Positions 4,743 to 48,622 of a DNA stretch of 48,622 bases are shown piece after piece. The first letter of the stretch is position 1, and every line of letters begins with the position of its first letter. Under the pieces are notes generated by a model. It saw only the letters and a program-made list of their open reading frames with translations. It was not told the DNA's origin and searched no databases. The translations under genes were made by a program, and so were the position numbers. The stretch is from Candidatus Staskawiczbacteria bacterium RIFCSPHIGHO2_02_FULL_43_16 (GTDB lineage Bacteria; Patescibacteriota; Minisyncoccia; Minisyncoccales; Staskawiczbacteraceae): positions 45,157 through 93,778 of the forward strand of contig MHOU01000010.1 in the NCBI GenBank assembly GCA_001821935.1, given 5' to 3'.

Positions 4743-5793
4743 ATTATTTTCATTTTTGTCTTTAGACATGGCCATTGACTTAGGTACGGCCAACTCTTTG
4801 GTGTACGTTAAAGACCGGGGCATTATTATCAACGAACCTTCGGTTGTTGCGGTAAATAATAAAACCGGGCAGATTTTGGCTATCGGGGAAGAAGCCAAAA
4901 AAATGGTGGGCAGAACCCCTTCTTATATAACCGCCACCCGGCCTTTGGTAAATGGGGTGATTTCAGATTTTGAAGTAACCGAGCAAATGCTTAAATATTT
5001 TATTGAAAAGGCGGTGGCTGGTTCTAAAAAATGGTGGGGGTTTGGCTATTCGCCAAGGGTTATTATTGGCATTCCCTGCGGCGTAACCGAAGTGGAAAGA
5101 AAGGCCGTAAGAGACGCGGCCAAAAACGCTGGTGCCAGGACGGTTTTTTTGATTGAGGAGCCTTTGGCTTCTGCCATTGGCGCGAAGTTGCCCATCCAAG
5201 AACCGGGTGGAAATTTTATTGTTGATATTGGCGGGGGAACTACCGAAGTGGCTGTGATTTCTTTAGGGGGGATTGTGGCATTTCGGAGCTTGCGTGTTGC
5301 CGGTGATAAATTAAATGATGATATTATTCAGTTTGCCCAAAAAGAATATAAGCTGTTGATTGGTGAGCGTACGGCGGAATTCATTAAAATAAACATTGGC
5401 AGTGCCATGGCCATGAAAGAAAAAAAGGAAATGCCCATGCGCGGGCGGAATTTAGTGACGGGGCTTCCCGAAGAAGTGGTGATTTTTAACGATGACATTC
5501 AGCGGGCCTTGGAACGTTCAGTCAAACAAATTGTAGCAGCCATTAAAACGACCATTGAAGAAACCCCACCGGAACTTTTGAGCGATGTGATGACCAACGG
5601 TATTTTTTTGGCTGGCGGCGGAAGTTTACTGCGCGGCCTTGATGCATTGATTGCTCGGGAGACAAAGATGCCATGCAGGATCATTGATGATCCGTTGACT
5701 TCTGTGGTACGTGGCTGTGGCATTGCCTTGGAAAATATTGAAACTTTAGAAACGTTGGTGCAAAAGGATGAAGAATGGGGGGCACCGGTGTAG
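4723..5793 (+). CDS. mreB: Rod-shape determining protein MreB, full length
   Basis: MFGNISKLFSFLSLDMAIDLGTANSLVYV matches the MreB N-terminus. DIGGGTTEVAVISLGG is the actin phosphate-2 loop. Confidence 0.9.
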   Translation: MFGNISKLFSFLSLDMAIDLGTANSLVYVKDRGIIINEPSVVAVNNKTGQILAIGEEAKKMVGRTPSYITATRPLVNGVISDFEVTEQMLKYFIEKAVAGSKKWWGFGYSPRVIIGIPCGVTEVERKAVRDAAKNAGARTVFLIEEPLASAIGAKLPIQEPGGNFIVDIGGGTTEVAVISLGGIVAFRSLRVAGDKLNDDIIQFAQKEYKLLIGERTAEFIKINIGSAMAMKEKKEMPMRGRNLVTGLPEEVVIFNDDIQRALERSVKQIVAAIKTTIEETPPELLSDVMTNGIFLAGGGSLLRGLDALIARETKMPCRIIDDPLTSVVRGCGIALENIETLETLVQKDEEWGAPV

Positions 5794-6477: not shown

Positions 6478-6768
6478 ATGATAAGTAAAGAAGAGGTGCA
6501 ACATATTGCAAAATTAGCGAGATTGGAATTGACTGAACAGGAAACCGAAAAAATGCAGAAAGACATGTCTGCGATTTTGGATTATTTTGATGTACTGAAA
6601 AAAGCACCCAAAATAAAATCTAGTCCCGTGGTTCGGACTACAGGACTAAAAGAAAACGCGACCAGGAAAGATTTGGTGGTGGAAAGGCCGGCCAGTTTGG
6701 CCAACAATTTGGTTGGCGCCGCACCGGACAGAAAAGATGATTATATTAAGGTGAAATCAATTTTGTAA
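6478..6768 (+). CDS. gatC: Glu/Asp-tRNA amidotransferase subunit C
   Basis: 96 aa. EEVQHIAKLARLELTEQETEKM is the GatC signature. It contains the in-frame 28-nt repeat at 6621..6648. Confidence 0.85.
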   Translation: MISKEEVQHIAKLARLELTEQETEKMQKDMSAILDYFDVLKKAPKIKSSPVVRTTGLKENATRKDLVVERPASLANNLVGAAPDRKDDYIKVKSIL

Positions 6769-10217: not shown

Positions 10218-11402
10218 ATGTTCAGCGCAAAAGAAAAAATCCAAAGATTATTGGATAAAGCGGGTGTCACCATTAACGGCCCCCATGATTTTGACATCCA
10301 GGTGCATAACGAAAAACTCTATGGGCGGGTGTTGCTAGGCGGATCGCTGGCGCTGGGCGAATCTTACATAGACGGCTGGTGGGATGCCAAAAACCTTGAC
10401 CAGTTCTTCCATAATATTTTATCGGCCGGGCTTTCCGAGGAATTCAAATTAACCTGGCCTACGTTACTTACGTTTTTAAAAACCTATCTTTTTAATCTGG
10501 AAACCCCTTCGCGCTCTTTTGAAGTGGGTCAAAAACACTATGACATTGGCAATGATGTGTATGAAGCCATGCTGGACAAGCGCTTGGTGTACACCTGCGG
10601 TTACTGGGCCCCTTCGACAGATTCGACAGGCTCACTGCAAGCAAGCTCAGGGCAGGCAGAGAGAAATTTAGATGAAGCCCAAGAAGCAAAACTGGATTTG
10701 GTGTGCCGGAAAATCGGCCTGAAAAAAAGTGACAGGGTTTTGGACATTGGCTGTGGTTGGGGGAGTTTTTTGAAATTCGCCTCAGAAACATATGGCGCCA
10801 AGGGCACCGGAGTGACCGTTTCAAAAAACCAAGTGGCACTGGCCAAAGAAGTTTGCCAGGGCCTGCCCATAGAAATTTTGCTGCAAGACTACCGTGATGT
10901 AAAAGGCAGCTTTGACCACATTGTTTCCCTTGGTATGTTTGAGCACGTTGGGGTGAAAAATTACCGCACCTACATGCAAAAAGCCCATGACTTGTTAAAA
11001 GATGGCGGGTTGTTTTTGTTGCACACCATTGGCGTAAGCCAACCCCTGGAATTTGTGGACCCGTGGGTTGAAAAATATATTTTTCCCAACAGTATTTTGC
11101 CCGCCCCGGTAGAGGTGTCAAAAGCTATGGAAGGGCTTTTTACCATTGAAGACTGGCACAATTTCGGCGCAGATTACGATAAAACTTTGATGGCTTGGTT
11201 TGAGAATTTTGATGCTGCCTGGCCGCAACTTAGCGCTAAATATTCTGACCCTTCAATTCCACTCAGGGCAAGCAAATTTTATCGCATGTGGAAATATTAT
11301 CTGCTCAGTTTTGCCGGCTCTTTCCGCGCCCGCAATCTTCAGCTTTGGCAGATTGTGTTGAGTAAAAGGGGAGTGCCCGGCGGGTATAAATCGGTACGCT
11401 GA
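10218..11402 (+). CDS. cfa: Cyclopropane-fatty-acyl-phospholipid synthase
   Basis: VLDIGCGWG SAM-binding motif and CFA-synthase-wide similarity. It carries a ~16-aa in-frame insert (PSTDSTGSLQASSGQAE) made of the CCTTCGACAGGCTCAGGGCAGGC repeat. Confidence 0.85.
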   Translation: MFSAKEKIQRLLDKAGVTINGPHDFDIQVHNEKLYGRVLLGGSLALGESYIDGWWDAKNLDQFFHNILSAGLSEEFKLTWPTLLTFLKTYLFNLETPSRSFEVGQKHYDIGNDVYEAMLDKRLVYTCGYWAPSTDSTGSLQASSGQAERNLDEAQEAKLDLVCRKIGLKKSDRVLDIGCGWGSFLKFASETYGAKGTGVTVSKNQVALAKEVCQGLPIEILLQDYRDVKGSFDHIVSLGMFEHVGVKNYRTYMQKAHDLLKDGGLFLLHTIGVSQPLEFVDPWVEKYIFPNSILPAPVEVSKAMEGLFTIEDWHNFGADYDKTLMAWFENFDAAWPQLSAKYSDPSIPLRASKFYRMWKYYLLSFAGSFRARNLQLWQIVLSKRGVPGGYKSVR

Positions 11403-13507: not shown

Positions 13508-14180
13508 ATTTGAAAAGGTTACCAAAATTTACTTGCCCGAATCCGCCGTTTTGCAAGATGTTTCTTTTGAAGTAAAAAAGGGCGAGTTTGTTTCCATTGT
13601 GGGAAAATCGGGGGCGGGCAAATCCACCTTGATTAAAATGATTTTGGGGTTGGAAGAGCCCACCTACGGCGATGTCTTTTTTAACGGGGAAAACATTCAT
13701 AAAGTCAGCCACAATGAATTGCAGAATATCCGGCGTAAAATCGGCGCGGTTTATCAGGATTACAAGTTGCTGCCCGCCAAAACCGTGTATGAGAACGTAG
13801 CCTATATCATGGAAATTGAAGGCAGGGTAAACGAAGATATTGCTTTGCAGGTTCCCAGGGTACTGGCGGCCATCGGGCTGAAAGAGAAAATGGATAACTT
13901 TCCCGAAGAACTTTCCGGCGGCGAACAGCAGCGCCTGGCCATTGCCCGGGCGTTAGCGGGGCAGCCGGAGGTGATTATTGCGGATGAGCCGACCGGGAAT
14001 TTGGATCCGTATAATTCCCATGAAGTGCTGGCGCTGTTGGAAAAAATAAACCGGTCGGGGAAAACCGTTATCTTGGCCACGCACGATAGGGAAATTGTCA
14101 ACAAATTAGCGCGAAGGGTGATTACCATAGAAGACGGGAGGGTGGTGAGGGACGAAGAAAAAGGAAGATTCATTATTTAG
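13500..14180 (+). CDS. ftsE: Cell division ATP-binding protein FtsE
   Basis: Walker A GKSGAGKST, ABC signature LSGGEQQRLAIARAL, 226 aa, adjacent to ftsX. Confidence 0.9.
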   Translation: MIRFEKVTKIYLPESAVLQDVSFEVKKGEFVSIVGKSGAGKSTLIKMILGLEEPTYGDVFFNGENIHKVSHNELQNIRRKIGAVYQDYKLLPAKTVYENVAYIMEIEGRVNEDIALQVPRVLAAIGLKEKMDNFPEELSGGEQQRLAIARALAGQPEVIIADEPTGNLDPYNSHEVLALLEKINRSGKTVILATHDREIVNKLARRVITIEDGRVVRDEEKGRFII

Positions 14181-14262
14181 GGTCTAGGGGATAGGGTCTA
14201 GGGTCTAGTAAAAACGTAACACGGCGTTACGGCTAAACCCTAACCCCTAGACCCTAAGCCCT
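14178..14262. repeat. Heptamer-array palindrome: (TAGGGTC)-like x4 ... (CTAAACC/CTAACCC/CTAGACC/CTAAGCC)
   Basis: The two arms are roughly reverse-complementary around a loop (aaaaacgtaacacggcgttacgg). Read directly from sequence. Likely a terminator for ftsE or a REP-like element. Confidence 0.6.
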
Positions 14263-14269
14263 CAAAAAA

Positions 14270-15181
14270 ATGGCACATTTTTCAAGGGTATTGGGTTTCG
14301 CTTTTGCGCATTTTTACCGTAACAAAGGCACTTCCGTGGCCGCGATTTTTATTTTAACCATCACCACCCTGCTTATCACCGGGCTGTTTTTTGTGCGCGG
14401 CGCCAGTAATTACGTTATCGCTCAGGTGCAAAACAAAATTGACATTACCGCCTATTTTAAAGCGGACGCGGCCGAAGATGATATTTTGCAGGTGCGCCAG
14501 GAATTGCTGCAAGATGGCGAAGTTGTCAGGGCGGTTGAATATGTTTCCCAAGACCAGGCTTTGGCCGATTTTAACGCAAAGCACCAAGATGATCCCACCT
14601 TTGAACGCGCACTTCAGGAAGTGGGGCAGAATCCCTTTTTGCCTTCACTGAATATTATTACCAATGGGGCGGCGGCTGAATATGAGAATGTTGCCAATGT
14701 GCTGACCCAGGATAAATATGCCGTGCTAATAGAAGAGGTTGATTTTTCTGAAAAAAGGGATACTATTGAAAAGGTCTTTGCCATCACGGGTAGCATCACG
14801 CGGTTTGGGCTGGTGGCCGGGGTATTGCTTTTGCTGATTGCCATTTTAGTGGTTTTTAACACCATCAAACTGATTGTGGAAACTTCCGGGCAGGAAATCA
14901 GCACCATGCGTATTGTGGGGGCTTCAAACTGGTTTATTCGCGCGCCATTTGTTATTCAAGGGGTTATTTTTGGGGCCATTTCGTTTGCCATTTGTTTTGT
15001 GGCAACCGCTTTGATAGCTTATCTTTTAGCTTCGGGGATTTCTGTTATCATGCCTGGATTTAATTTGTTCACATTTTTCCTTTCTAATATTTTGATTATC
15101 ATGGTCATTCAACTGGCCGCCGGCGCGGGCCTGGCAAGTTTGTTAAGTTTTATGGTGGTGAGGAAGTATTTAAAAGTATAA
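14270..15181 (+). CDS. ftsX: Cell division permease-like protein FtsX
   Basis: N-terminal TM helix, extracytoplasmic domain, three C-terminal TM helices, and position after ftsE. Confidence 0.85.
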   Translation: MAHFSRVLGFAFAHFYRNKGTSVAAIFILTITTLLITGLFFVRGASNYVIAQVQNKIDITAYFKADAAEDDILQVRQELLQDGEVVRAVEYVSQDQALADFNAKHQDDPTFERALQEVGQNPFLPSLNIITNGAAAEYENVANVLTQDKYAVLIEEVDFSEKRDTIEKVFAITGSITRFGLVAGVLLLLIAILVVFNTIKLIVETSGQEISTMRIVGASNWFIRAPFVIQGVIFGAISFAICFVATALIAYLLASGISVIMPGFNLFTFFLSNILIIMVIQLAAGAGLASLLSFMVVRKYLKV

Positions 15182-15278
15182 ACCCTAAATACTAAATCCT
15201 AAACTCTAAATAAATTCAAAATCACAAAATTTAAAATCTAAAACACGTTTAGGATTTAGAGTTTAGTGTTTATGGTTT
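15181..15278. repeat. Heptamer-array palindrome: CCTAAAT/ACTAAAT/CCTAAAC/TCTAAAT ... TTTAGGA/TTTAGAG/TTTAGTG/TTTATGG
   Basis: Same family as 46604..46712 (shared CTAAACTCTAAATAAAT and TTTAGGATTTAGAGTTTAGTGTTTA). Arms are mirror heptamer arrays. Confidence 0.6.
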
Positions 15279-15283
15279 AACAT

Positions 15284-15354
15284 TGCGGGATCGTCTAATG
15301 GTAGGACAACAGATTCTGGATCTGTTTATCTAGGTTCGAATCCTAGTCCCGCAG
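15284..15354 (+). tRNA. tRNA-Gln (anticodon CUG) with U1:A72
   Basis: Acceptor stem TGCGGGA/TCCCGCA, D-loop AATGGTA, anticodon loop TTCTGGA, T-arm CTAGG-TTCGAAT-CCTAG. No encoded CCA. Confidence 0.85.
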
Positions 15355-23559: not shown

Positions 23560-23834
23560 CTAGGGCGCCAGTTCATATTATAACTTATGGTAGCGAGTAA
23601 ATTCGGGCAAGATTCAAGGCGCAACGAGGAAACGTATCCTCTGCGATACGTTGACGAAGTTGCAACGATGAAGCTTGCCCGAATTCACTCGCCCAAAGGG
23701 AAACCAAAAAATGGCTGATTTCTTCGTTTTTCCTCGTCGGCGATACACTGCGGTATCGCCTCCTCGGAAGAAACCTTGAAATCATCTCATTTTTTGGCTT
23801 CTACCATAAGTCCTAATATGAACTGGCACCCTAG
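23560..23834. mobile_element. MITE-like structured element, copy 2 (~275 bp; 34-bp TIRs CTAGGGCGCCAGTTCATATTATAACTTATGGTAG)
   Basis: TIRs match with 3-4 mismatches. The core aligns to copy 1 (GGCAAGATTCAAGGCGC, GCAACGATGAAGCTTGCC, CATTTTTTG(A)GCTTCTA). The internal stem shows compensatory changes. Confidence 0.55.
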
Positions 23835-24630: not shown

Positions 24631-24712
24631 GGGGTCTAGCGTCTAGGGTATAGGGTATAGTAAAACGGCGTACGTCGTGACTAGCCCCTAGCCCCTATCC
24701 CCTAAACCCTCA
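24631..24712. repeat. Heptamer-array palindrome: GGGTCTA/GCGTCTA/GGGTATA/GGGTATA ... CTAGCCC/CTAGCCC/CTATCCC/CTAAACC
   Basis: Same architecture as 14178..14262. Lies between the MBL gene and the DUF167 gene. Confidence 0.6.
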
Positions 24713-24715
24713 AGA

Positions 24716-24937
24716 ATGAAGATCATTATCAAAGCCAAGCCGGGTTCAAGAGAAGACAAGATAGAAAAAGTAGATGAAGCTAATTACATTGTTTATGTGA
24801 CGGCTCCGCCCATTGACGGCAAGGCCAACGCGGCTATTATTAAGTTACTGGCGGCGCATTTTGACGTGAGCCAATCGTTGATAGAAATCATTTCCGGCCA
24901 CATGGCGCGGGTGAAAGTAGTAGAAATAAATAACTAA
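24716..24937 (+). CDS. DUF167/YggU family protein
   Basis: 73 aa. KPGSREDKI...VTAPPIDGKANAAIIKLLA...ISGHMARVKVVEI matches the UPF0235 pattern. Confidence 0.6.
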   Translation: MKIIIKAKPGSREDKIEKVDEANYIVYVTAPPIDGKANAAIIKLLAAHFDVSQSLIEIISGHMARVKVVEINN

Positions 24938-31854: not shown

Positions 31855-31973
31855 AGTAGTTTTTCCTTTCAATGAGCGAATGATGGGTAATTTCACTAAC
31901 CATTATATTATATTAAAATTTAATTTTGTCAAATAACCCCAGTCCTGTAGTCCGAACCACAGGACTAAAATAA

Positions 31974-32327: not shown

Positions 32328-32393
32328 ATGCCAAAGTAACCGTAGTCCCGTGGTTCGGACTACAGGACTAGAATATCATAGTAGAAACTAAGT

Positions 32394-33037: not shown

Positions 33038-33727
33038 ATGGCAAAACTATTTTTATTGAGGCATTTGAAATCACAGTGGAACAAGGATGATCGCTTTGCG
33101 GGGTGGGTGGATAACCCTCTTTCGGATGAAGGTCGGGCGCAAGCGGCGGGAATTGCCGACCAGTTGCGAGGCCAGCAAATTGACGTGGCGTATTGCAATG
33201 CTTTAATTCGTTGCACGGAAACCGTTTTGCGTGTGTATGAAAAAATAGATGGAAAATATCCGTTGTTTTTGCATATTGATGGCGGGAACATGCAAGAATG
33301 GGGAAACTATACTGGCAATGGAATGGGCGAGGTGCCGTTTTACGTGAGCGAAAAATTAAATGAGCGCTATTATGGTAGTGTGCAAGGGTTGAACAAAGCC
33401 CAGTGTAAAAAAGAATACGGTGAGGATGTAGTGCAGCAGTGGCGCAGGGCTTACAAAGTGGCGCCGCCGGAAGGGGAGTCAGGTGAAGACACGTTTAATC
33501 GTGTGTTGCCATTTTACCAACAATACATTGAAAAAGATTTAAAGGCCGGGAAAAATGTGTTGGTGGTGGCCAGCCATAACAGTTTGCGGGCCATTGCCAA
33601 ACATATTGAAAACATTTCTGATGATGACGTGGCGAATTTAGAACTCCCATTTGGGGCGCTGGTGGAATACGAATTTGACCCTTCGACAGGCTCAGGGCAG
33701 GCGGGAAAATTTACTAAGTTGCAATAA
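33038..33727 (+). CDS. gpmA: 2,3-bisphosphoglycerate-dependent phosphoglycerate mutase (histidine phosphatase family)
   Basis: LLRHLKSQWN catalytic His motif. The C-terminal tail carries the in-frame PSTGSGQA repeat. Confidence 0.8.
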   Translation: MAKLFLLRHLKSQWNKDDRFAGWVDNPLSDEGRAQAAGIADQLRGQQIDVAYCNALIRCTETVLRVYEKIDGKYPLFLHIDGGNMQEWGNYTGNGMGEVPFYVSEKLNERYYGSVQGLNKAQCKKEYGEDVVQQWRRAYKVAPPEGESGEDTFNRVLPFYQQYIEKDLKAGKNVLVVASHNSLRAIAKHIENISDDDVANLELPFGALVEYEFDPSTGSGQAGKFTKLQ

Positions 33728-36232: not shown

Positions 36233-38665
36233 ATGAAAAATGTTTTGTGGTTTAAAGAGCTAGGCATTAAAGATGTGCCGCAGGTGGGCGGGAAAAATGC
36301 CTCGCTTGGTGAAATGTATAATAATTTGCTAAGTAAGGGAGTTAATTTGGCAAACGGTTTTGCCACCACCTCCCAGGCTTATTTTATTTTTCTGGAAAAA
36401 AGCGGCTTGTCTTTGCAAATCCAGAACATTTTAAAAGATATTAATGTGCATGACCTGGCCGCACTGCAAGAAAAAGGCAAGAAAGTGCGCCAGCTTATTT
36501 TGAGTGTTAATTTGCAGCCCGCCCTTCAAGAAGAAATCATCGCGGCTTACCGCCAGCTGTCGGATATGTACGGGTCAAAAAATACCGATGTGGCAGTAAG
36601 GTCTTCGGCCACTGCCGAAGACCTGCCCGGAGCCAGTTTTGCCGGCCAACAGGAAACGTTTTTAAATGTTACCGGGGAACAAAATGTATTGGAGGCGGTG
36701 AAAAAATGCTTTGCATCTTTGTTCACTGACCGGGCCATTGCTTACCGCCAGGAAATGGGGTTTGGGCATACCAAAGTGGGCTTATCGGCTGGCATCCAAA
36801 AAATGGTGCGCTCCGACGTGGGCGCCAGCGGCGTGATGTTTTCCTGTGACACGGAAAGCGGTTTTGGCGACGTGGTGCTCATTAACGCCAGCTATGGTTT
36901 GGGTGAAAATGTGGTGTTGGGAAGAGTGGAGCCGGACCAATATTACGTGTTTGAGCCTACCCTAAAAACGGGGCACAAACCCATTATCCAAAAAAAAATC
37001 GGGTCAAAGCTTTTGACCATGGTTTACACCAAAGACCCAAAAAACCCGATTAAAAACACCAAAACCTTGCCAAAAAACCAGCAATCATTTGTGTTGGCAG
37101 ATGAAGAAATTTTGCAGCTGGCTAAGTGGTCAATGCTGGTGGAAGCCCACTACCAAAAACCCATGGACATGGAATGGGCCAAAGACGGTATTGACGGCAA
37201 ATTGTATATTGTCCAAGCTAGGCCCGAAACCGTACAAAGCAAACGGAACGTGAATGTGCTAGAAGATTACGTTTTGCAAACACCCAAAACCCAACACCTA
37301 ACACCCATTGCTAGGGGCATGAGTGTCGGGGGAAAAATCGGATCCGGCAAGGCCCATAAAATTTTAAGCCCGAAGGATATTAATAATTTCAAAAAAGGGG
37401 AAGTGCTGGTAACCGGCATGACAGACCCGGACTGGGTGCCGGCCATGAAACTGGCCAGCGCGATTATTACCGACCAGGGCGGTCGCACGGCTCACGCGGC
37501 CATTGTTTCCCGTGAATTGGGAATTCCCTGCATTGTGGGCGCGGGCAATGCCACTAAAACCGTAAAAACCGGCCAGGAAATTACCGTGGATTGTTCCGGC
37601 GGAGAAGAGGGCTTTGCTTACGAAGGCATTATTCCGTTTGAAATAAAAAAAGTAGATATTTCAAAATTAAAAAAGCCCAAAACTAAAATCGCCATGAACT
37701 TGGCAGACCCTTCCCAAGCCTTTAATTTAAGCTTTATTCCCAATGACGGCGTGGGCCTAGCGCGGGAAGAATTTATTATTGCCAACACCATCAAAATTCA
37801 CCCCAACGCCCTGATAGATTACAAAAAATTAAAGCCGGCGCTGCGTAAAAAAATTGACGCGCTGACGCTGGGGTATGAAAATAAGATTGATTTTTACGTT
37901 GATAAATTGGCCGAAGGGGTGGGGAAAATTGGCGCGGCATTTTACCCAAAACAGGTGATAGTGCGATTTTCTGATTTTAAAACCAACGAATACCGTCAGT
38001 TGGTAGGCGGCGAGCTTTACGAAATGCATGAAGAAAATCCCATGATGGGTTTTCGCGGAGCTTCCCGGTATTATCACGAAAGTTTCAAGCAGGCCTTTAT
38101 GTTGGAATGCCAGGCCATTAAAAAAGTGCGGGAGGAATTTGGCATTGATAACGTGCAAGTGATGATTCCCATGTGCCGGACTATTGAAGAGGGCCAGAAG
38201 GTGCTGGAAGTCATGAAGGAAGCCGGTTTGGTGAAAGGTGAGAACCCTTCGACAGGCTCAGGGCAAGTGGCCTTGAAAGTATATGTCATGTGCGAACTTC
38301 CGGCTAACGTGGTTTTAGCAGAACAGTTTTTGGAAATGTTTGACGGCTTTTCCATTGGGTCTAATGATTTAACCCAGTTTACCCTGGGCCTGGACCGCGA
38401 TAATTCGGAAATGTCCGGCGTTGCCAACGAAAAAAATGATGCGGTGAAAGAATTAATTAAAGAGGCGGTGCGGGTTTGTAAAAAAATGGGGAAATATTCG
38501 GGCATTTGCGGAGACGCGCCTTCCACATTCCTTGAATTTACCAAATTTTTGGTAGACCAGGGCATTGAATCAATTTCTTTGTCATCAGACGCCATTATTA
38601 AAACTACGATGGCGGTACTTGAGTATGAAAAGGAAAAATCCGCAAATACAATTAATAGGACGTAG
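36233..38665 (+). CDS. ppsA: Phosphoenolpyruvate synthase (pyruvate, water dikinase)
   Basis: 810 aa. N-terminal ATP-grasp, central phospho-His domain, C-terminal PEP-utilising domain. In-frame PSTGSGQVA insert relative to E. coli ...GENG-LKIIMMCE.... Confidence 0.9.
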   Translation: MKNVLWFKELGIKDVPQVGGKNASLGEMYNNLLSKGVNLANGFATTSQAYFIFLEKSGLSLQIQNILKDINVHDLAALQEKGKKVRQLILSVNLQPALQEEIIAAYRQLSDMYGSKNTDVAVRSSATAEDLPGASFAGQQETFLNVTGEQNVLEAVKKCFASLFTDRAIAYRQEMGFGHTKVGLSAGIQKMVRSDVGASGVMFSCDTESGFGDVVLINASYGLGENVVLGRVEPDQYYVFEPTLKTGHKPIIQKKIGSKLLTMVYTKDPKNPIKNTKTLPKNQQSFVLADEEILQLAKWSMLVEAHYQKPMDMEWAKDGIDGKLYIVQARPETVQSKRNVNVLEDYVLQTPKTQHLTPIARGMSVGGKIGSGKAHKILSPKDINNFKKGEVLVTGMTDPDWVPAMKLASAIITDQGGRTAHAAIVSRELGIPCIVGAGNATKTVKTGQEITVDCSGGEEGFAYEGIIPFEIKKVDISKLKKPKTKIAMNLADPSQAFNLSFIPNDGVGLAREEFIIANTIKIHPNALIDYKKLKPALRKKIDALTLGYENKIDFYVDKLAEGVGKIGAAFYPKQVIVRFSDFKTNEYRQLVGGELYEMHEENPMMGFRGASRYYHESFKQAFMLECQAIKKVREEFGIDNVQVMIPMCRTIEEGQKVLEVMKEAGLVKGENPSTGSGQVALKVYVMCELPANVVLAEQFLEMFDGFSIGSNDLTQFTLGLDRDNSEMSGVANEKNDAVKELIKEAVRVCKKMGKYSGICGDAPSTFLEFTKFLVDQGIESISLSSDAIIKTTMAVLEYEKEKSANTINRT

Positions 38666-45909: not shown

Positions 45910-46610
45910 TGACATCCGAATCTACTAATAACGTAAAACTTAACGCGGATGATATGGCCAAAGCCGGCCTGAATTTTGGTCATACCGTTTCCAAGCTTCA
46001 TCCTAAAATGAAGGCTTTTGTACAGGGCGTTAAAAGCAATGTCCACATGATTGATATGGAAAAGTCCGCCAAAGAATTTGATTTGGCTTTGAAATTTATT
46101 TCCCAATTAGTTGCCGAAGGAAAAACATTGCTGTTTGTGGGAACAAAAATACAGGCAAAAAATTTAACCAAAGTAGCGGCGGTGGAAAGCGGTATGCCAT
46201 ATGTTACCGAACGGTGGCTGGGTGGAGCCTTTACTAATTTTGAAACCATTTCAAAACGGGTGGCTCACTTGAAAGACTTGGAAAGCAAAAAAGCCAAAGG
46301 TGAATTTGAGAAATATACCAAATATGAACAGATGATGCTTAATGAAGAAATCGCTTCGCTGACCACGAAATTTGAAGGCATCAAAAATATGGCAAAGTTG
46401 CCGGAAGCCGTTTTAATTTTAGATTTAAAAAAAGACATTGCCGTAGCGCGTGAAGCAAAACGCAAGGGTATTAAAATTGTGGGCATTGTAGACACCAATA
46501 TTGACCCGGCTCTGGCCGATTACGCCATTTATGCCAATGATGACGCCGTTTCTTCTATTGGATACGTGCTGGAAAAAATCAAAGAAACTATATTAAGTGC
46601 GAAACCCTAA
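45909..46610 (+). CDS. rpsB: 30S ribosomal protein S2
   Basis: GHTVSKLHPKMKAFV...LFVGTK. Confidence 0.9.
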   Translation: MTSESTNNVKLNADDMAKAGLNFGHTVSKLHPKMKAFVQGVKSNVHMIDMEKSAKEFDLALKFISQLVAEGKTLLFVGTKIQAKNLTKVAAVESGMPYVTERWLGGAFTNFETISKRVAHLKDLESKKAKGEFEKYTKYEQMMLNEEIASLTTKFEGIKNMAKLPEAVLILDLKKDIAVAREAKRKGIKIVGIVDTNIDPALADYAIYANDDAVSSIGYVLEKIKETILSAKP

Positions 46611-46712
46611 ATCCGAAACCCTAAACTCTAAATAAATAAAAAATTCAAAATAAAAAACGTTTTGAGTTTAAATATTTGAGTTTATTTAGGATTTAGAGTT
46701 TAGTGTTTAGAA
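46604..46712. repeat. Heptamer-array palindrome of the 15181 family: AACCCTAAA/TCCGAAACCCTAAA/CTCTAAA ... TTTAGGATTTAGAGTTTAGTGTTTAG
   Basis: Shares the right arm and CTAAACTCTAAATAAAT with 15181..15278. Lies between rpsB and tsf. Confidence 0.6.
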
Positions 46713-46715
46713 TTT

Positions 46716-47165
46716 ATGATTAATATCGAAGATATTAAGAGATTGAGAGATGAAACCGGTGCCTCGCCGGTGAAAATTAAAAAGGCCATGGAAGAGTCTG
46801 GGGAAGATGTTCAAAAAGCCAAGGAATTGTTGAAAAGCTGGGGAGCGGTAAAAGCCGGTGAAAAAGGAGGGCGCGAAACCCATGACGGTGTGATTGATTT
46901 TTATATCCATCCTAATGCCAAGTCCGGCGTACTACTGGATATCCGTTGTGAAACTGATTTTGTGGCAAAAAACCCCGATTTTAAAAGCCTGGCTCACGAA
47001 ATTTGCCTGCACATTGCCGCCATGCAGCCTGAAAATGTTGAAGCCTTGCTGGCGCAATCCTGGGTAAAAGACGATGCCAAAACCATTAAAAGTTTGATTG
47101 AAGAAACAGTAGCTAAAATAGGGGAGAATATTACTGTGAAACAGTTTGCACGCTTTGCGATATAA
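46716..47165 (+). CDS. tsf: Elongation factor Ts, short form
   Basis: 149 aa. IKRLRDETGASPVKIKKAMEESGEDVQKAKELL N-terminal UBA-like domain. Confidence 0.85.
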   Translation: MINIEDIKRLRDETGASPVKIKKAMEESGEDVQKAKELLKSWGAVKAGEKGGRETHDGVIDFYIHPNAKSGVLLDIRCETDFVAKNPDFKSLAHEICLHIAAMQPENVEALLAQSWVKDDAKTIKSLIEETVAKIGENITVKQFARFAI

Positions 47166-48157: not shown

Positions 48158-48622
48158 TATTTGAGAGTTTGATCCTAGCTCAGGGTGAACGCTGGAAATG
48201 TGGATACCGGCATGCAAGTCAAGGGGCCCAGGGATGTAGACTCTGAACGCGAATCTAAATTGAGAAGCGAAAAAATGTGATAATTTCAATGTTTCTTGCG
48301 ACGAAATGTAGTGACTACTACATTGAGGAGTAAAAACGAAGAAATTAGCCATTTTTTCGCTTCCCTTCGGGCTTTCATATTTTGATTATCTTCTGCGTCT
48401 TCGGAGCTTAACGATGCCTACAGCATCGCTTCGCTCCTCAGTTCTTGAATATAATCAAAATATGGAAGCTCAATTGATTCTGTTCAGAGTCTACATCCTT
48501 AAGGCACCGGCGAACGGCTTAGTAACACGTGGATACATACCGCAAAGTGGAGCACAGCTCGTCGAAAGACGGGGTAATTCTCCATAATCCCGCAAGGGTA
48601 AACACGCAAGTGGCTTTGTGAA
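48158..48622 (+). rRNA. rrs: 16S rRNA, 5' portion (runs off the window end), with a ~230-nt insertion in helix 6 (48252..48480)
   Basis: GAGAGTTTGATCCTAGCTCAGGGTGAACGCTGG...CATGCAAGTC...GGCGAACGGCTTAGTAACACGTGG match conserved 16S 5' blocks. The extended helix GGGATGTAGACTCTGAACG/TGTTCAGAGTCTACATCC encloses the inserted sequence. Confidence 0.9.

Follow-up and report, generated by a model that had tools for sequence, protein, structure and literature searches.

In the 48,622-nucleotide stretch of the Candidatus Staskawiczbacteria bacterium RIFCSPHIGHO2_02_FULL_43_16 genome analyzed here (contig MHOU01000010.1; hereafter, the window), a short DNA unit is inserted in frame in the genes of three unrelated enzymes: the cyclopropane-fatty-acyl-phospholipid synthase Cfa, the phosphoglycerate mutase GpmA, and the phosphoenolpyruvate synthase PpsA. 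A preliminary description of the window had reported the same DNA unit at these three places, and all three copies were found. The finding is real and wider than was thought there, as the unit is specific neither to this genome nor to its lineage. It probably represents a very short (21–24 nt) and widespread interspersed repeat that is inserted without duplication, behaves like the Rickettsia palindromic elements (RPEs), and is filtered by selection. The earlier reading of an RPE-like inserted unit is retained in part; the corrections concern the occurrence of the unit beyond this genome and lineage, the existence of palindromic members, and the parsing of the cfa copy.

Copies of the unit in cfa, gpmA, and ppsA

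Common to the copies in gpmA and ppsA is the core CCTTCGACAGGCTCAGGGCA(G), of which cfa carries an expanded version, called insert A (Table 1). These three copies are all on the forward strand and are translated in the host frame as P-S-T-G-S-G-Q. The 16-mer CGACAGGCTCAGGGCA has three matches in the window at no more than three mismatches, against 0.22 expected, and three matches were reached in none of 100 shuffles. The cfa copy had been placed at 10611–10664 and described as duplicated and expanded: its start and its larger size are correct, but it ends at 10657, a few bases earlier, and is a discrete 45–47-nt composite, apparently a unit nested in a unit, that is also present in ppsA of another organism (L242).

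A degenerate fourth copy (insert B), missed in the preliminary description, was located further downstream in cfa. It is seven edits away from the 24-nt consensus, which by sequence alone is within chance (10 matches at seven edits or fewer in the window, against 4.4 expected), but its position matches precisely that of an insert of eight residues seen against both E. coli Cfa and the protein P0122. Other degenerate matches in the window were rejected as copies, since only the four listed sites coincide with protein insertions. All four are inside open reading frames (ORFs), every coding copy in the window keeps the frame, and no reverse-strand copy of the unit was found in the window.

Table 1. 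Copies of the unit in the window and their host genes.
Feature	Sequence	Encoded peptide	Length (nt)	Position	Strand	Location
Long (composite) form, insert A	CCTTCGACAGATTCGACAGGCTCACTGCAAGCAAGCTCAGGGCAGGC	PSTDSTGSLQASSGQA	47	10611–10657	+	Cfa, after ..CGYW; net +15 codons
Degenerate fourth copy, insert B	CCTTCAATTCCACTCAGGGCAAGC	PSIPLRAS	24	11250–11273	+	Cfa, after TCTGAC
Short unit	CCTTCGACAGGCTCAGGGCAG	PSTGSGQ	21	33680–33700	+	Between ..TTTGAC and GCGGGA.., before the GpmA C-terminal tail
Short unit	CCTTCGACAGGCTCAGGGCAAGTG	PSTGSGQV	24	38246–38269	+	PpsA, after GAGAAC
Host gene cfa (cyclopropane-fatty-acyl-phospholipid synthase)				10218–11402	+	
Host gene gpmA (histidine-phosphatase-family phosphoglycerate mutase)				33038–33727	+	
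Host gene ppsA (phosphoenolpyruvate synthase)				36233–38665	+	

Empty sites in orthologues and predicted structures

Alignment with orthologues confirmed the positions of the inserts in Cfa, GpmA, and PpsA and their proposed nature of in-frame insertions: the residues are extra relative to E. coli Cfa, Neisseria PpsA, and the closest orthologues from the Candidate Phyla Radiation (CPR). Insert A adds 15 residues to Cfa when compared with the E. coli enzyme (6bqc), the PpsA insert adds eight residues relative to Neisseria PpsA (2ols), and in GpmA the homology with a solved structure stops at ..YEFDP, directly before the unit.

For each of the three genes, the nearest orthologues lack the insert. 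The closest PpsA orthologues (82–88% identical) read GEN-G/D-LKV, as testified by the insert-free P0001 (88%) and P0003 (86%), where the window has 24 extra bases after GAGAAC; the site is empty in P0001, P0002, P0003, P0005, and L126. The GpmA proteins of loci L131 and L132 continue as ..YEFD|AGKF.. without an insert. The corresponding empty site is GAATTTGAC|GGCGGC in L131 and GAATTTGAT|GCTGGAAAA in L132, and becomes GAATTTGAC-CCTTCGACAGGCTCAGGGCAG-GCGGGAAAA in the window, a clean 21-nt insertion. Most CPR Cfa orthologues read CGYW-KD-AKNLDEAQ and have about 371 residues, against 394 residues for the Cfa of the window. Comparison with the empty orthologous sites revealed no target-site duplication in gpmA and ppsA, and neither terminal inverted repeats nor a target-site duplication are present at any of the four window sites. 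The gpmA and ppsA copies carry the cross-phylum consensus at 20 of 20 core bases, and the surrounding genes are about 55–88% identical to their orthologues. All true cluster members of the window proteins carry the inserts; a candidate same-species empty PpsA allele (P0004, 95% identical, no insert) was discarded as a chimera whose C-terminal third comes from another lineage.

It had been suggested that such inserts are tolerated in loops, and AlphaFold2 models are consistent with this for Cfa and PpsA. In the Cfa model (mean predicted local distance difference test score, pLDDT, 92.7), the sole low-confidence segment is formed by residues 131–150, corresponding to insert A, which is predicted as coil with a pLDDT below 50 at residues 141–144, and insert B is in the loop between helices 317–342 and 350–370. 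In the PpsA model (mean pLDDT 83.3), the insert is situated in a coil (residues 664–682, pLDDT below 50 at 675–677) that forms the loop between helix 651–663 and strand 683–687 of the PEP-utilizers_C barrel. The position of the unit in GpmA corresponds to a hinge ahead of the short C-terminal tail.

Occurrence across bacterial phyla and boundaries of the unit

The exact 20-mer of the unit was searched in one genome per species (596 Gb), with the taxa taken from the record titles. About one occurrence of a given 20-mer is expected by chance; at least 120 loci were found, with unrelated flanks on both sides. They come from well over ten phyla, with representatives of Chloroflexota, Acidobacteriota, Actinomycetota, Alpha-, Beta-, Gamma-, and Deltaproteobacteria, Cyanobacteria, Planctomycetota, Verrucomicrobiota, Bacteroidota, Gemmatimonadota, Nitrospirales, Margulisiibacteriota, and several CPR groups. 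A C occupies position −1 in 120 of 128 copies (94%), and conservation fades after about +3/+4 (R, G, C, and a weak T). These sharp boundaries define the unit as C|CCTTCGACAGGCTCAGGGCA|RGC, of about 24 nt.

The 20-mer occurs in 30 plasmid or chromid records of cultured bacteria, with closed replicons from Sphingobium, Sphingomonas, Moraxella osloensis, Comamonas, and Variovorax among its carriers, and is absent from 5,426 E. coli genomes. Among viral sequences, exact matches are present in 28 IMG/VR contigs and a single weak match in 50,697 reference phage records, and the pattern of the long form has no match in viral contigs. Phages were not retained as carriers, as these counts, whose densities are not normalized, give no sign of enrichment.

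About 72% of the 146 copies with full flanks are solitary, 10% (15 copies) have an inverted partner within 150 nt, and 18% have a direct neighbor; tandem or nested arrangements occur in L100, L015, and L043. Internal pairing within a single unit is limited to the 4-bp CCCT/AGGG. In Moraxella, Variovorax, and sphingomonads, the unit constitutes the right arm of an intergenic hairpin, such as GGTGAGCCTGTCGAAG-N16-CTTCGACAGGCTCAGGGCGAGC. The unit had been described as non-palindromic, which applies to the solitary majority but not to these two-arm hairpins, nor to one in a Staskawiczbacteria PpsA described below.

No known RNA family matches the unit. At or above the gathering score, the Rfam matches in the window were limited to tRNAs and the 5′ portion of the 16S rRNA gene, and the hairpin versions gave only subthreshold generic hairpins (miRNA precursors and AaHKsRNA41, 22–35 bits against cut-offs of 68–100), so that a known RNA family was rejected as its identity. 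Literature searches by DNA sequence, by the encoded peptides of all frames, and by topic returned nothing relevant on the unit. An origin from, or mimicry of, the 16S rRNA 5′ end was also rejected: the 16S start in the window (AGAGTTTGATCCTAGCTCAGGGTGAACGC, 48157 onward) shares only GCTCAGGG, an 8-mer match attributable to chance in 48 kb, and the unit is the same across phyla yet identical to no 16S.

Target preference and a possible dedicated enzyme

The triplet preceding 153 exact copies is GAC in 23% of cases, a 13-fold enrichment over the background of 1.7%, and GGC in 14%. The empty gpmA and ppsA sites already hold GAC or AAC, and the insertion sites in the window read TTTGAC|, TCTGAC|, and GAGAAC|. 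This preference for positions 3′ of GAC or GGC is statistical, not absolute. The unit itself contains TTCGAC and CAGGC, and these internal preferred sites would account for nested and tandem copies.

IS200/IS605-type transposition is recognized by insertion 3′ of a short motif with no duplication. A dedicated and widely distributed trans-acting enzyme, either a single-strand nuclease similar to HUH enzymes and RAYTs or another recombinase, could paste the unit 3′ of GRC, its recognition requirement being reflected in the cross-phylum identity. We regard this as the foremost of the alternatives, albeit an improbable one. The GAC enrichment, the C at −1, the sharp left boundary, the lack of duplication, the identity of the 20-mer in many phyla, and the two-arm hairpins of proteobacteria and of one CPR PpsA, which resemble repetitive extragenic palindromic (REP) elements, would all be in line with it. 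Arguing against such an enzyme, the 24-nt unit has no subterminal hairpins and is mostly solitary, the inserts vary in length (21, 24, and 27 nt), and intergenic copies have no strand polarity relative to neighboring genes. In addition, the window encodes no transposase, HUH, reverse-transcriptase, or integrase domains. The only Y1_Tnp match, in the CPR contig L211 (5993–6178), is a truncated 61-residue fragment of an IS200-like Y1 transposase (Pfam Y1_Tnp, E = 2.7e-7) with no unit nearby. A nearby mobilizing gene was thus rejected, the ORFs of the window being housekeeping genes and the L211 fragment being unconnected.

Recurrent and nested inserts in CPR Cfa and PpsA

Inserts of this family are recurrent at two loops, as indicated by comparison with 120 Cfa orthologues and with the 120 best PpsA relatives (789–860 residues). 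The PpsA loop near residue 670 carries unit-like inserts in 32 of the 120 orthologues, the window itself not counted; these are different family members located at slightly different codons, and small inserts are found at about ten sites of PpsA. The inserted peptides comprise SADSGQV, LRQSSGQA, DSSGQAL(QDSSEQAI), HSVGSGQA, PSAPLRAG, SPFDVAQGH, and PFDTAQGD in sense and, more rarely, PELVEG and GPALSGAE in antisense, all of them translated from this repeat family. The Cfa loop following CGYW is occupied in about 42 of the 120 orthologues, by NPSTGSGQG, NPSTSSGQA, PSTSLRAG, long forms, or short remnants (SGNPP or NPPAGG). Some inserts are partial and contain the second half only (SGQAL, SAGQA), and lengths of 21, 24, 27, and 45 nt are observed.

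The long form is found in two unrelated genes. The composite CCTTCGACAGATTCGACAGGCTCACTGCAAGCAAGCTCAGGGCAGGC is present in cfa of two other CPR lineages (L209 and L212), and a near-identical one, GAAAAC|CCTTCGACAGATTCGGCAAACTCACTGCAGGCAGGCTCAGGGCAGGG, occupies ppsA of L242 at the same nucleotide as the short form in the window; the long form is thus a discrete variant. In cfa, it parses as a unit inserted in a unit directly after the outer TTCGAC. By our own parsing, the cfa insert of L211 displays three levels of nesting, TCTTCGAC | GGATTCGGC | CCCTTCGACGAACTCAGGGCAAGC | AGGCTCACCGCAGGC | AGGTTCAGGGCAT, in which the third unit is near-canonical and placed at the equivalent point of the inner unit.

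Palindromic inserts accompany the unit in some lineages. The ppsA gene of another Staskawiczbacteria metagenome-assembled genome (MAG) (P0080/L241, GCA_016196125.1, 10001–12583) contains four different in-frame hairpin inserts. The complete two-arm form of this family, CCTGAGCTTGTCGAAGG-AAGGAAA-CCCTTCGACGCGGCTCAGGG (LNHPELVEGRKPFDAAQGD), is one of them and lies in the same PpsA loop; another is a perfect 14-bp palindrome, ACCCCGTTAGAAAT-AAA-ATTTCTAACGGGGT (IDPVRNKISNG). These hairpin inserts indicate that several other short palindromic families also colonize CPR ORFs. On the same contig, FtsZ has a long C-terminal extension containing LPRAYRQAGAGRQA. A relative of ppsA in L132 carries at about 10799–10819 the in-frame CCTGCCGGCAGGCAGGTAAAA (PAGRQVK) with a perfect 12-nt palindrome, CCTGCCGGCAGG, and the related peptides LPAGRQV, SLPAG, and PAGRQA are present at other PpsA sites in other lineages.

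A separate observation concerns a sister-strain contig (L208, ERZ27254767 k141_1368704), in which the N-terminal domain of cfa is swapped at 1140–1200 for an unrelated transmembrane segment. The breakpoint, ..GCTTCCGC|GACAGATTCGACAGG.., falls within insert A, so that the repeat may have served as a rearrangement point in this single case.

Alternatively, the inserts at the hotspots could be loop sequences of old date and vertical inheritance, or alleles exchanged by recombination between CPR lineages, and would then trace back to one or a few ancient events; we consider this unlikely. The preliminary description had held that PSTGSGQ at the same positions in related lineages would indicate conserved sequence. 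For cfa, many such CPR relatives exist: PSTGSGQ or PSTSSGQ is present at this position in relatives from Kaiserbacteria, Uhrbacteria, and Staskawiczbacteria. Furthermore, the non-consensus bases CTCACYRCAAGCAAG are common to the long forms of the window, L209, and L212, whose divergence is about that of their flanks. However, when the insert columns are left out of a Cfa distance tree, at least ten clusters contain carriers interspersed with empties, and the insertion point shifts by a codon or two: it is after W or within the K codon, with KD retained or lost. A simple-form cfa carrier that is available as sequence (L210) is one edit away from the 24-nt consensus. Together, these observations fit a recurrent hotspot better than a conserved ancestral sequence. 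An ancient origin is equally at odds with the diversity of occupants in one PpsA loop (PSTGSGQV, long form, PFDTAQGD, and full hairpin), with the empty nearest orthologues of all three genes, with the perfect cores of the gpmA and ppsA copies in much more divergent genes, and with the presence of the unit in unrelated genes and intergenic DNA of other phyla.

Orientation, reading frame, and probable selection

Copies in long ORFs are not evenly distributed among frames: 40 are read as PSTGSGQ, 13 as LRQAQG, 7 as FDRLRA, and 15 in antisense. At loci with a GC content of 55% or less, the coding copies are 13 in sense and one in antisense, in contrast to intergenic copies, whose orientation with respect to the upstream gene is 11 versus 11. 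We therefore attribute the bias in sense and frame to selection on the product. Outside CPR, most copies are not within long ORFs, and in other low-GC genomes 18 of 29 copies are outside long ORFs.

The unit could alternatively be kept for a role as DNA or RNA, as a polar signal of the FtsK-orienting (KOPS) or Chi kind, since it contains GGGCAGG, or as a DNA-uptake-type sequence, coding copies being maintained in harmless frames. Such a role seems very unlikely. The top strand of the unit is on the G-rich strand of the 8-kb neighborhood in 87 cases versus 49 (p = 0.003); with |skew| above 0.03, this holds for 53 of 69. Uptake sequences show a reading-frame bias in genes similar to that seen here, and the inverted intergenic pairs are similar to terminator-like pairs of uptake sequences. 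Yet the strand association is explained by confounding with sense-oriented coding copies: the GC-skew argument vanishes once these are set apart (intergenic 11:11), and a KOPS- or Chi-like signal was rejected. In addition, KOPS, Chi, and uptake sequences are far denser than the four copies per 48.6 kb seen here, the unit arises by whole-block insertion and not by point substitution, and uptake specificity is confined to lineages, whereas the unit crosses phyla and is missing from E. coli.

Finally, adaptor or chimeric-assembly sequence, or a chance likeness of low-complexity linkers, can be dismissed for all practical purposes: although most carriers are MAGs and the unit is short, identical PpsA proteins are encoded by 17 contigs, of which the five listed represent as many different samples or assemblies (one from NCBI MAGs, three from ENA, and one from JGI, including GCA_001820305.1), proteins of this Candidatus Staskawiczbacteria cluster (CPR/Patescibacteria) occur under three NCBI MAG accessions, the carriers' contig names point to different assemblers, and closed replicons of cultured Sphingobium, Moraxella, Comamonas, and Variovorax carry the unit, to which are added the preserved frame of every coding copy in the window, the 100 shuffles that never attained the observed count, and the excess of the 20-mer over chance. 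Identical insert-bearing proteins on contigs from independent samples exclude an assembly artefact.

Comparison with known repeat families

By behavior, RPEs are the closest known case, as the preliminary description had proposed; by anatomy, the unit touches REP elements. RPEs were reportedly described by Ogata et al. in 2000 under the title "Selfish DNA in protein-coding genes of Rickettsia". As with RPEs, a short repeat is found in unrelated housekeeping ORFs of a reduced genome, keeps the frame, yields a peptide compatible with the fold, and has no known transposase; this holds for the four inserts in cfa, gpmA, and ppsA. RPEs are, however, palindromic, about 100–150 bp long, and restricted to Rickettsia, whereas the unit is 21–24 nt long (47 for the composite), mostly solitary and non-palindromic (15 of 146 copies have an inverted partner), and present in many phyla. 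The two were set apart by these features of size, structure, and distribution.

REP elements, with their BIME and REPIN arrangements, resemble the unit in size class (20–40 nt), in the number of dispersed copies, in the intergenic hairpin arms of proteobacteria, and in the mostly non-ORF location beyond CPR; indeed, the 18 of 29 low-GC copies outside long ORFs make the wider family partly REP-like. REPs differ in being specific to a species or genus, extragenic, and each an imperfect palindrome in inverted doublets, with a usual GTAG/CGTC tag and a cognate RAYT gene flanked by REPs. The unit alone is non-palindromic (4-bp pairing), crosses phyla, and is inside ORFs at all four window sites, and no cognate RAYT (Y1 HUH) gene was seen, there being no Y1_Tnp or other transposase domain in the window or sister contigs. 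The "peel-and-paste" elements of the IS200/IS605 type insert directly 3′ of a short preferred motif without target-site duplication, to which the statistical motif preference of the unit and the lack of duplication at its gpmA and ppsA sites may be comparable; they need a Y1 transposase and subterminal hairpins at both ends, which 24 nt cannot hold; the intergenic copies of the unit show no orientation bias relative to neighboring genes.

MITEs (miniature inverted-repeat transposable elements), such as Correia elements and Nezha, are non-autonomous and can be co-translated with host genes, but have terminal inverted repeats, target-site duplications, and lengths of 100–400 bp, none of which is found here. 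Uptake sequences (DUS/USS) are very dense, lineage-specific, and generated by point substitution, against four block insertions per 48.6 kb and many phyla for the unit. Short-patch double illegitimate recombination, or template switching, produces ectopic patches of about 3–80 nt with microhomology junctions, variable length, and no duplication, and sometimes replaces a few host bases, like the KD lost in Cfa; its donors are arbitrary, and alone it gives no recurrent cross-phylum unit. The unit thus lacks defining features of RPEs, REPs, MITEs, and uptake sequences. At about 24 nt, an unusually small size for what appears to be selfish DNA, it would be, to our knowledge, the smallest interspersed repeat with self-nesting and a target preference.

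Proposed mode of spread

We propose that the family consists of the consensus C|CCTTCGACAGGCTCAGGGCA|RGC and of the 45–47-nt nested composite. New chromosomal copies would go in without target-site duplication, preferentially just 3′ of GAC or GGC, and the sites of this type within the unit would lead to tandem and nested copies. Copies land anywhere, and selection would then clear most of those within genes. In the compact CPR genome, the survivors would be those that are a multiple of three long, in sense, usually in the frame of PSTGSGQ(A), a small flexible peptide, and located in loops of tolerant proteins. Once inserted, copies appear to decay or expand in place. That insertion is ongoing, that gene copies are under selection, and that the target rule is 3′ of GRC are the parts of this scheme that we infer.

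As for the route, we tentatively prefer that an existing copy serves as the source during replication or repair, through template switching or the annealing of single strands at microhomologies of 1–6 nt (..GAC or ..TTYGAC on the left, GC on the right). This choice is based on inserts that vary in length, on partial units, on bases that the host has in common with the unit at the junctions, and on the lack of an enzyme gene in the window and sister contigs. The second route, a trans-acting enzyme of the HUH/IS200-RAYT kind that acts on single-strand DNA, appears less likely still.

Several points weigh against the proposed repeat and its copying. Neither a donor or master copy nor a mobilizing enzyme was identified in the window, sister contigs, or related loci, and the copy density is modest (four per 48.6 kb in the window, eight per 279 kb in related CPR loci). 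Template switching leaves the cross-phylum identity of this particular sequence unaccounted for. A conserved trans-acting enzyme would explain this constancy better, but no candidate was seen, and the unit, having no hairpin of its own, does not satisfy the known substrate requirements of HUH Y1 transposases. The GAC preference might partly reflect an extended unit instead of a target. For cfa, a competing account is that the insertion took place once, long ago, and that many losses or a lateral exchange of alleles came afterward; among long-form carriers, the insert DNA is 72–77% identical, against 61–69% in the flanks, a difference that does not decide between old and recurrent insertion.

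Other repeats and genes of the window

The window is an ordinary housekeeping region, with holB, frr, an M50 peptidase gene, a class II aminoacyl-tRNA synthetase gene, mreB, an amidase gene, cfa, ftsEX, ftsZ, glycolysis genes, ribosomal protein genes, and the start of the 16S rRNA gene. It also contains three copies of a MITE-like family of about 270 nt with a mean column identity of 73% (22854–23125, 23560–23834, and, in reverse, about 48250–48500), two of which are bounded by inverted repeats of 29–34 nt. The first copy is flanked by a duplicated tRNA 3′ end (AGGTCCGATTCCTTCTGGACCCACCA, at 22790 and 23127), and the third is located in the 5′ domain of the 16S rRNA gene; there, Rfam matches model positions 1–226 only, over 466 nt, which implies an insertion of about 240 nt.

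Intergenic hairpins made of inverted heptamer arrays are found at 14170–14270, 15168–15284, 24671–24720, and 46602–46721. The heptamer resembles the plant telomere repeat (TTTAGGG/CCCTAAA, with variants TTTAGGA, TTTAGAG, and TCTAGGG), and these hairpins, located just downstream of genes, may act as terminators. A third short repeat, the hairpin TAGTCCCGTGGTTCGGACTACAGGACT, is present in three intergenic spacers in both orientations (6621–6647, 31941–31967, and 32343–32369). An ORF of 835 residues (15590–18097) matches the major vault protein shoulder and Vault_3 repeat domains of Pfam. The ORF is about 55% GC, the window about 44%, and this vault-like protein of a CPR genome may have been acquired horizontally. 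Two mreB-like paralogues about 5 kb apart share stretches with a DNA identity of 74–84% (129–201 and 482–543 versus 5207–5279 and 5560–5621).

Significance

If the proposed reading is true, loops of CPR proteins, and probably of others too, are repeatedly struck by a specific tiny DNA unit, which would provide a concrete source of small lineage-specific insertions in otherwise conserved enzymes. Odd peptides such as LRQAQG.., FDRLRAG.., STGSGQA.., and ..PELVEG clutter ORF predictions from metagenomes, and many of them would be explained in this way; the junction peptides of the inserts are ..EFDPSTGSGQAGK.. and ..GENPSTGSGQVALK... The hotspot loops, following CGYW in Cfa and near residue 670 in PpsA, act as natural traps that allow insertion events to be counted and dated. 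The cross-phylum identity, with no recognizable transposase, points to an undiscovered trans-acting system or to a replication-based selfishness. It is conceivable, though we hold it only tentatively, that a single mobile unit of about 24 nt is active in a large portion of the domain Bacteria, CPR members with genomes of roughly 1 Mb among them, its sequence being held constant by an unrecognized, very widespread machinery or property of replication, and that it continuously seeds loop peptides in core enzymes.

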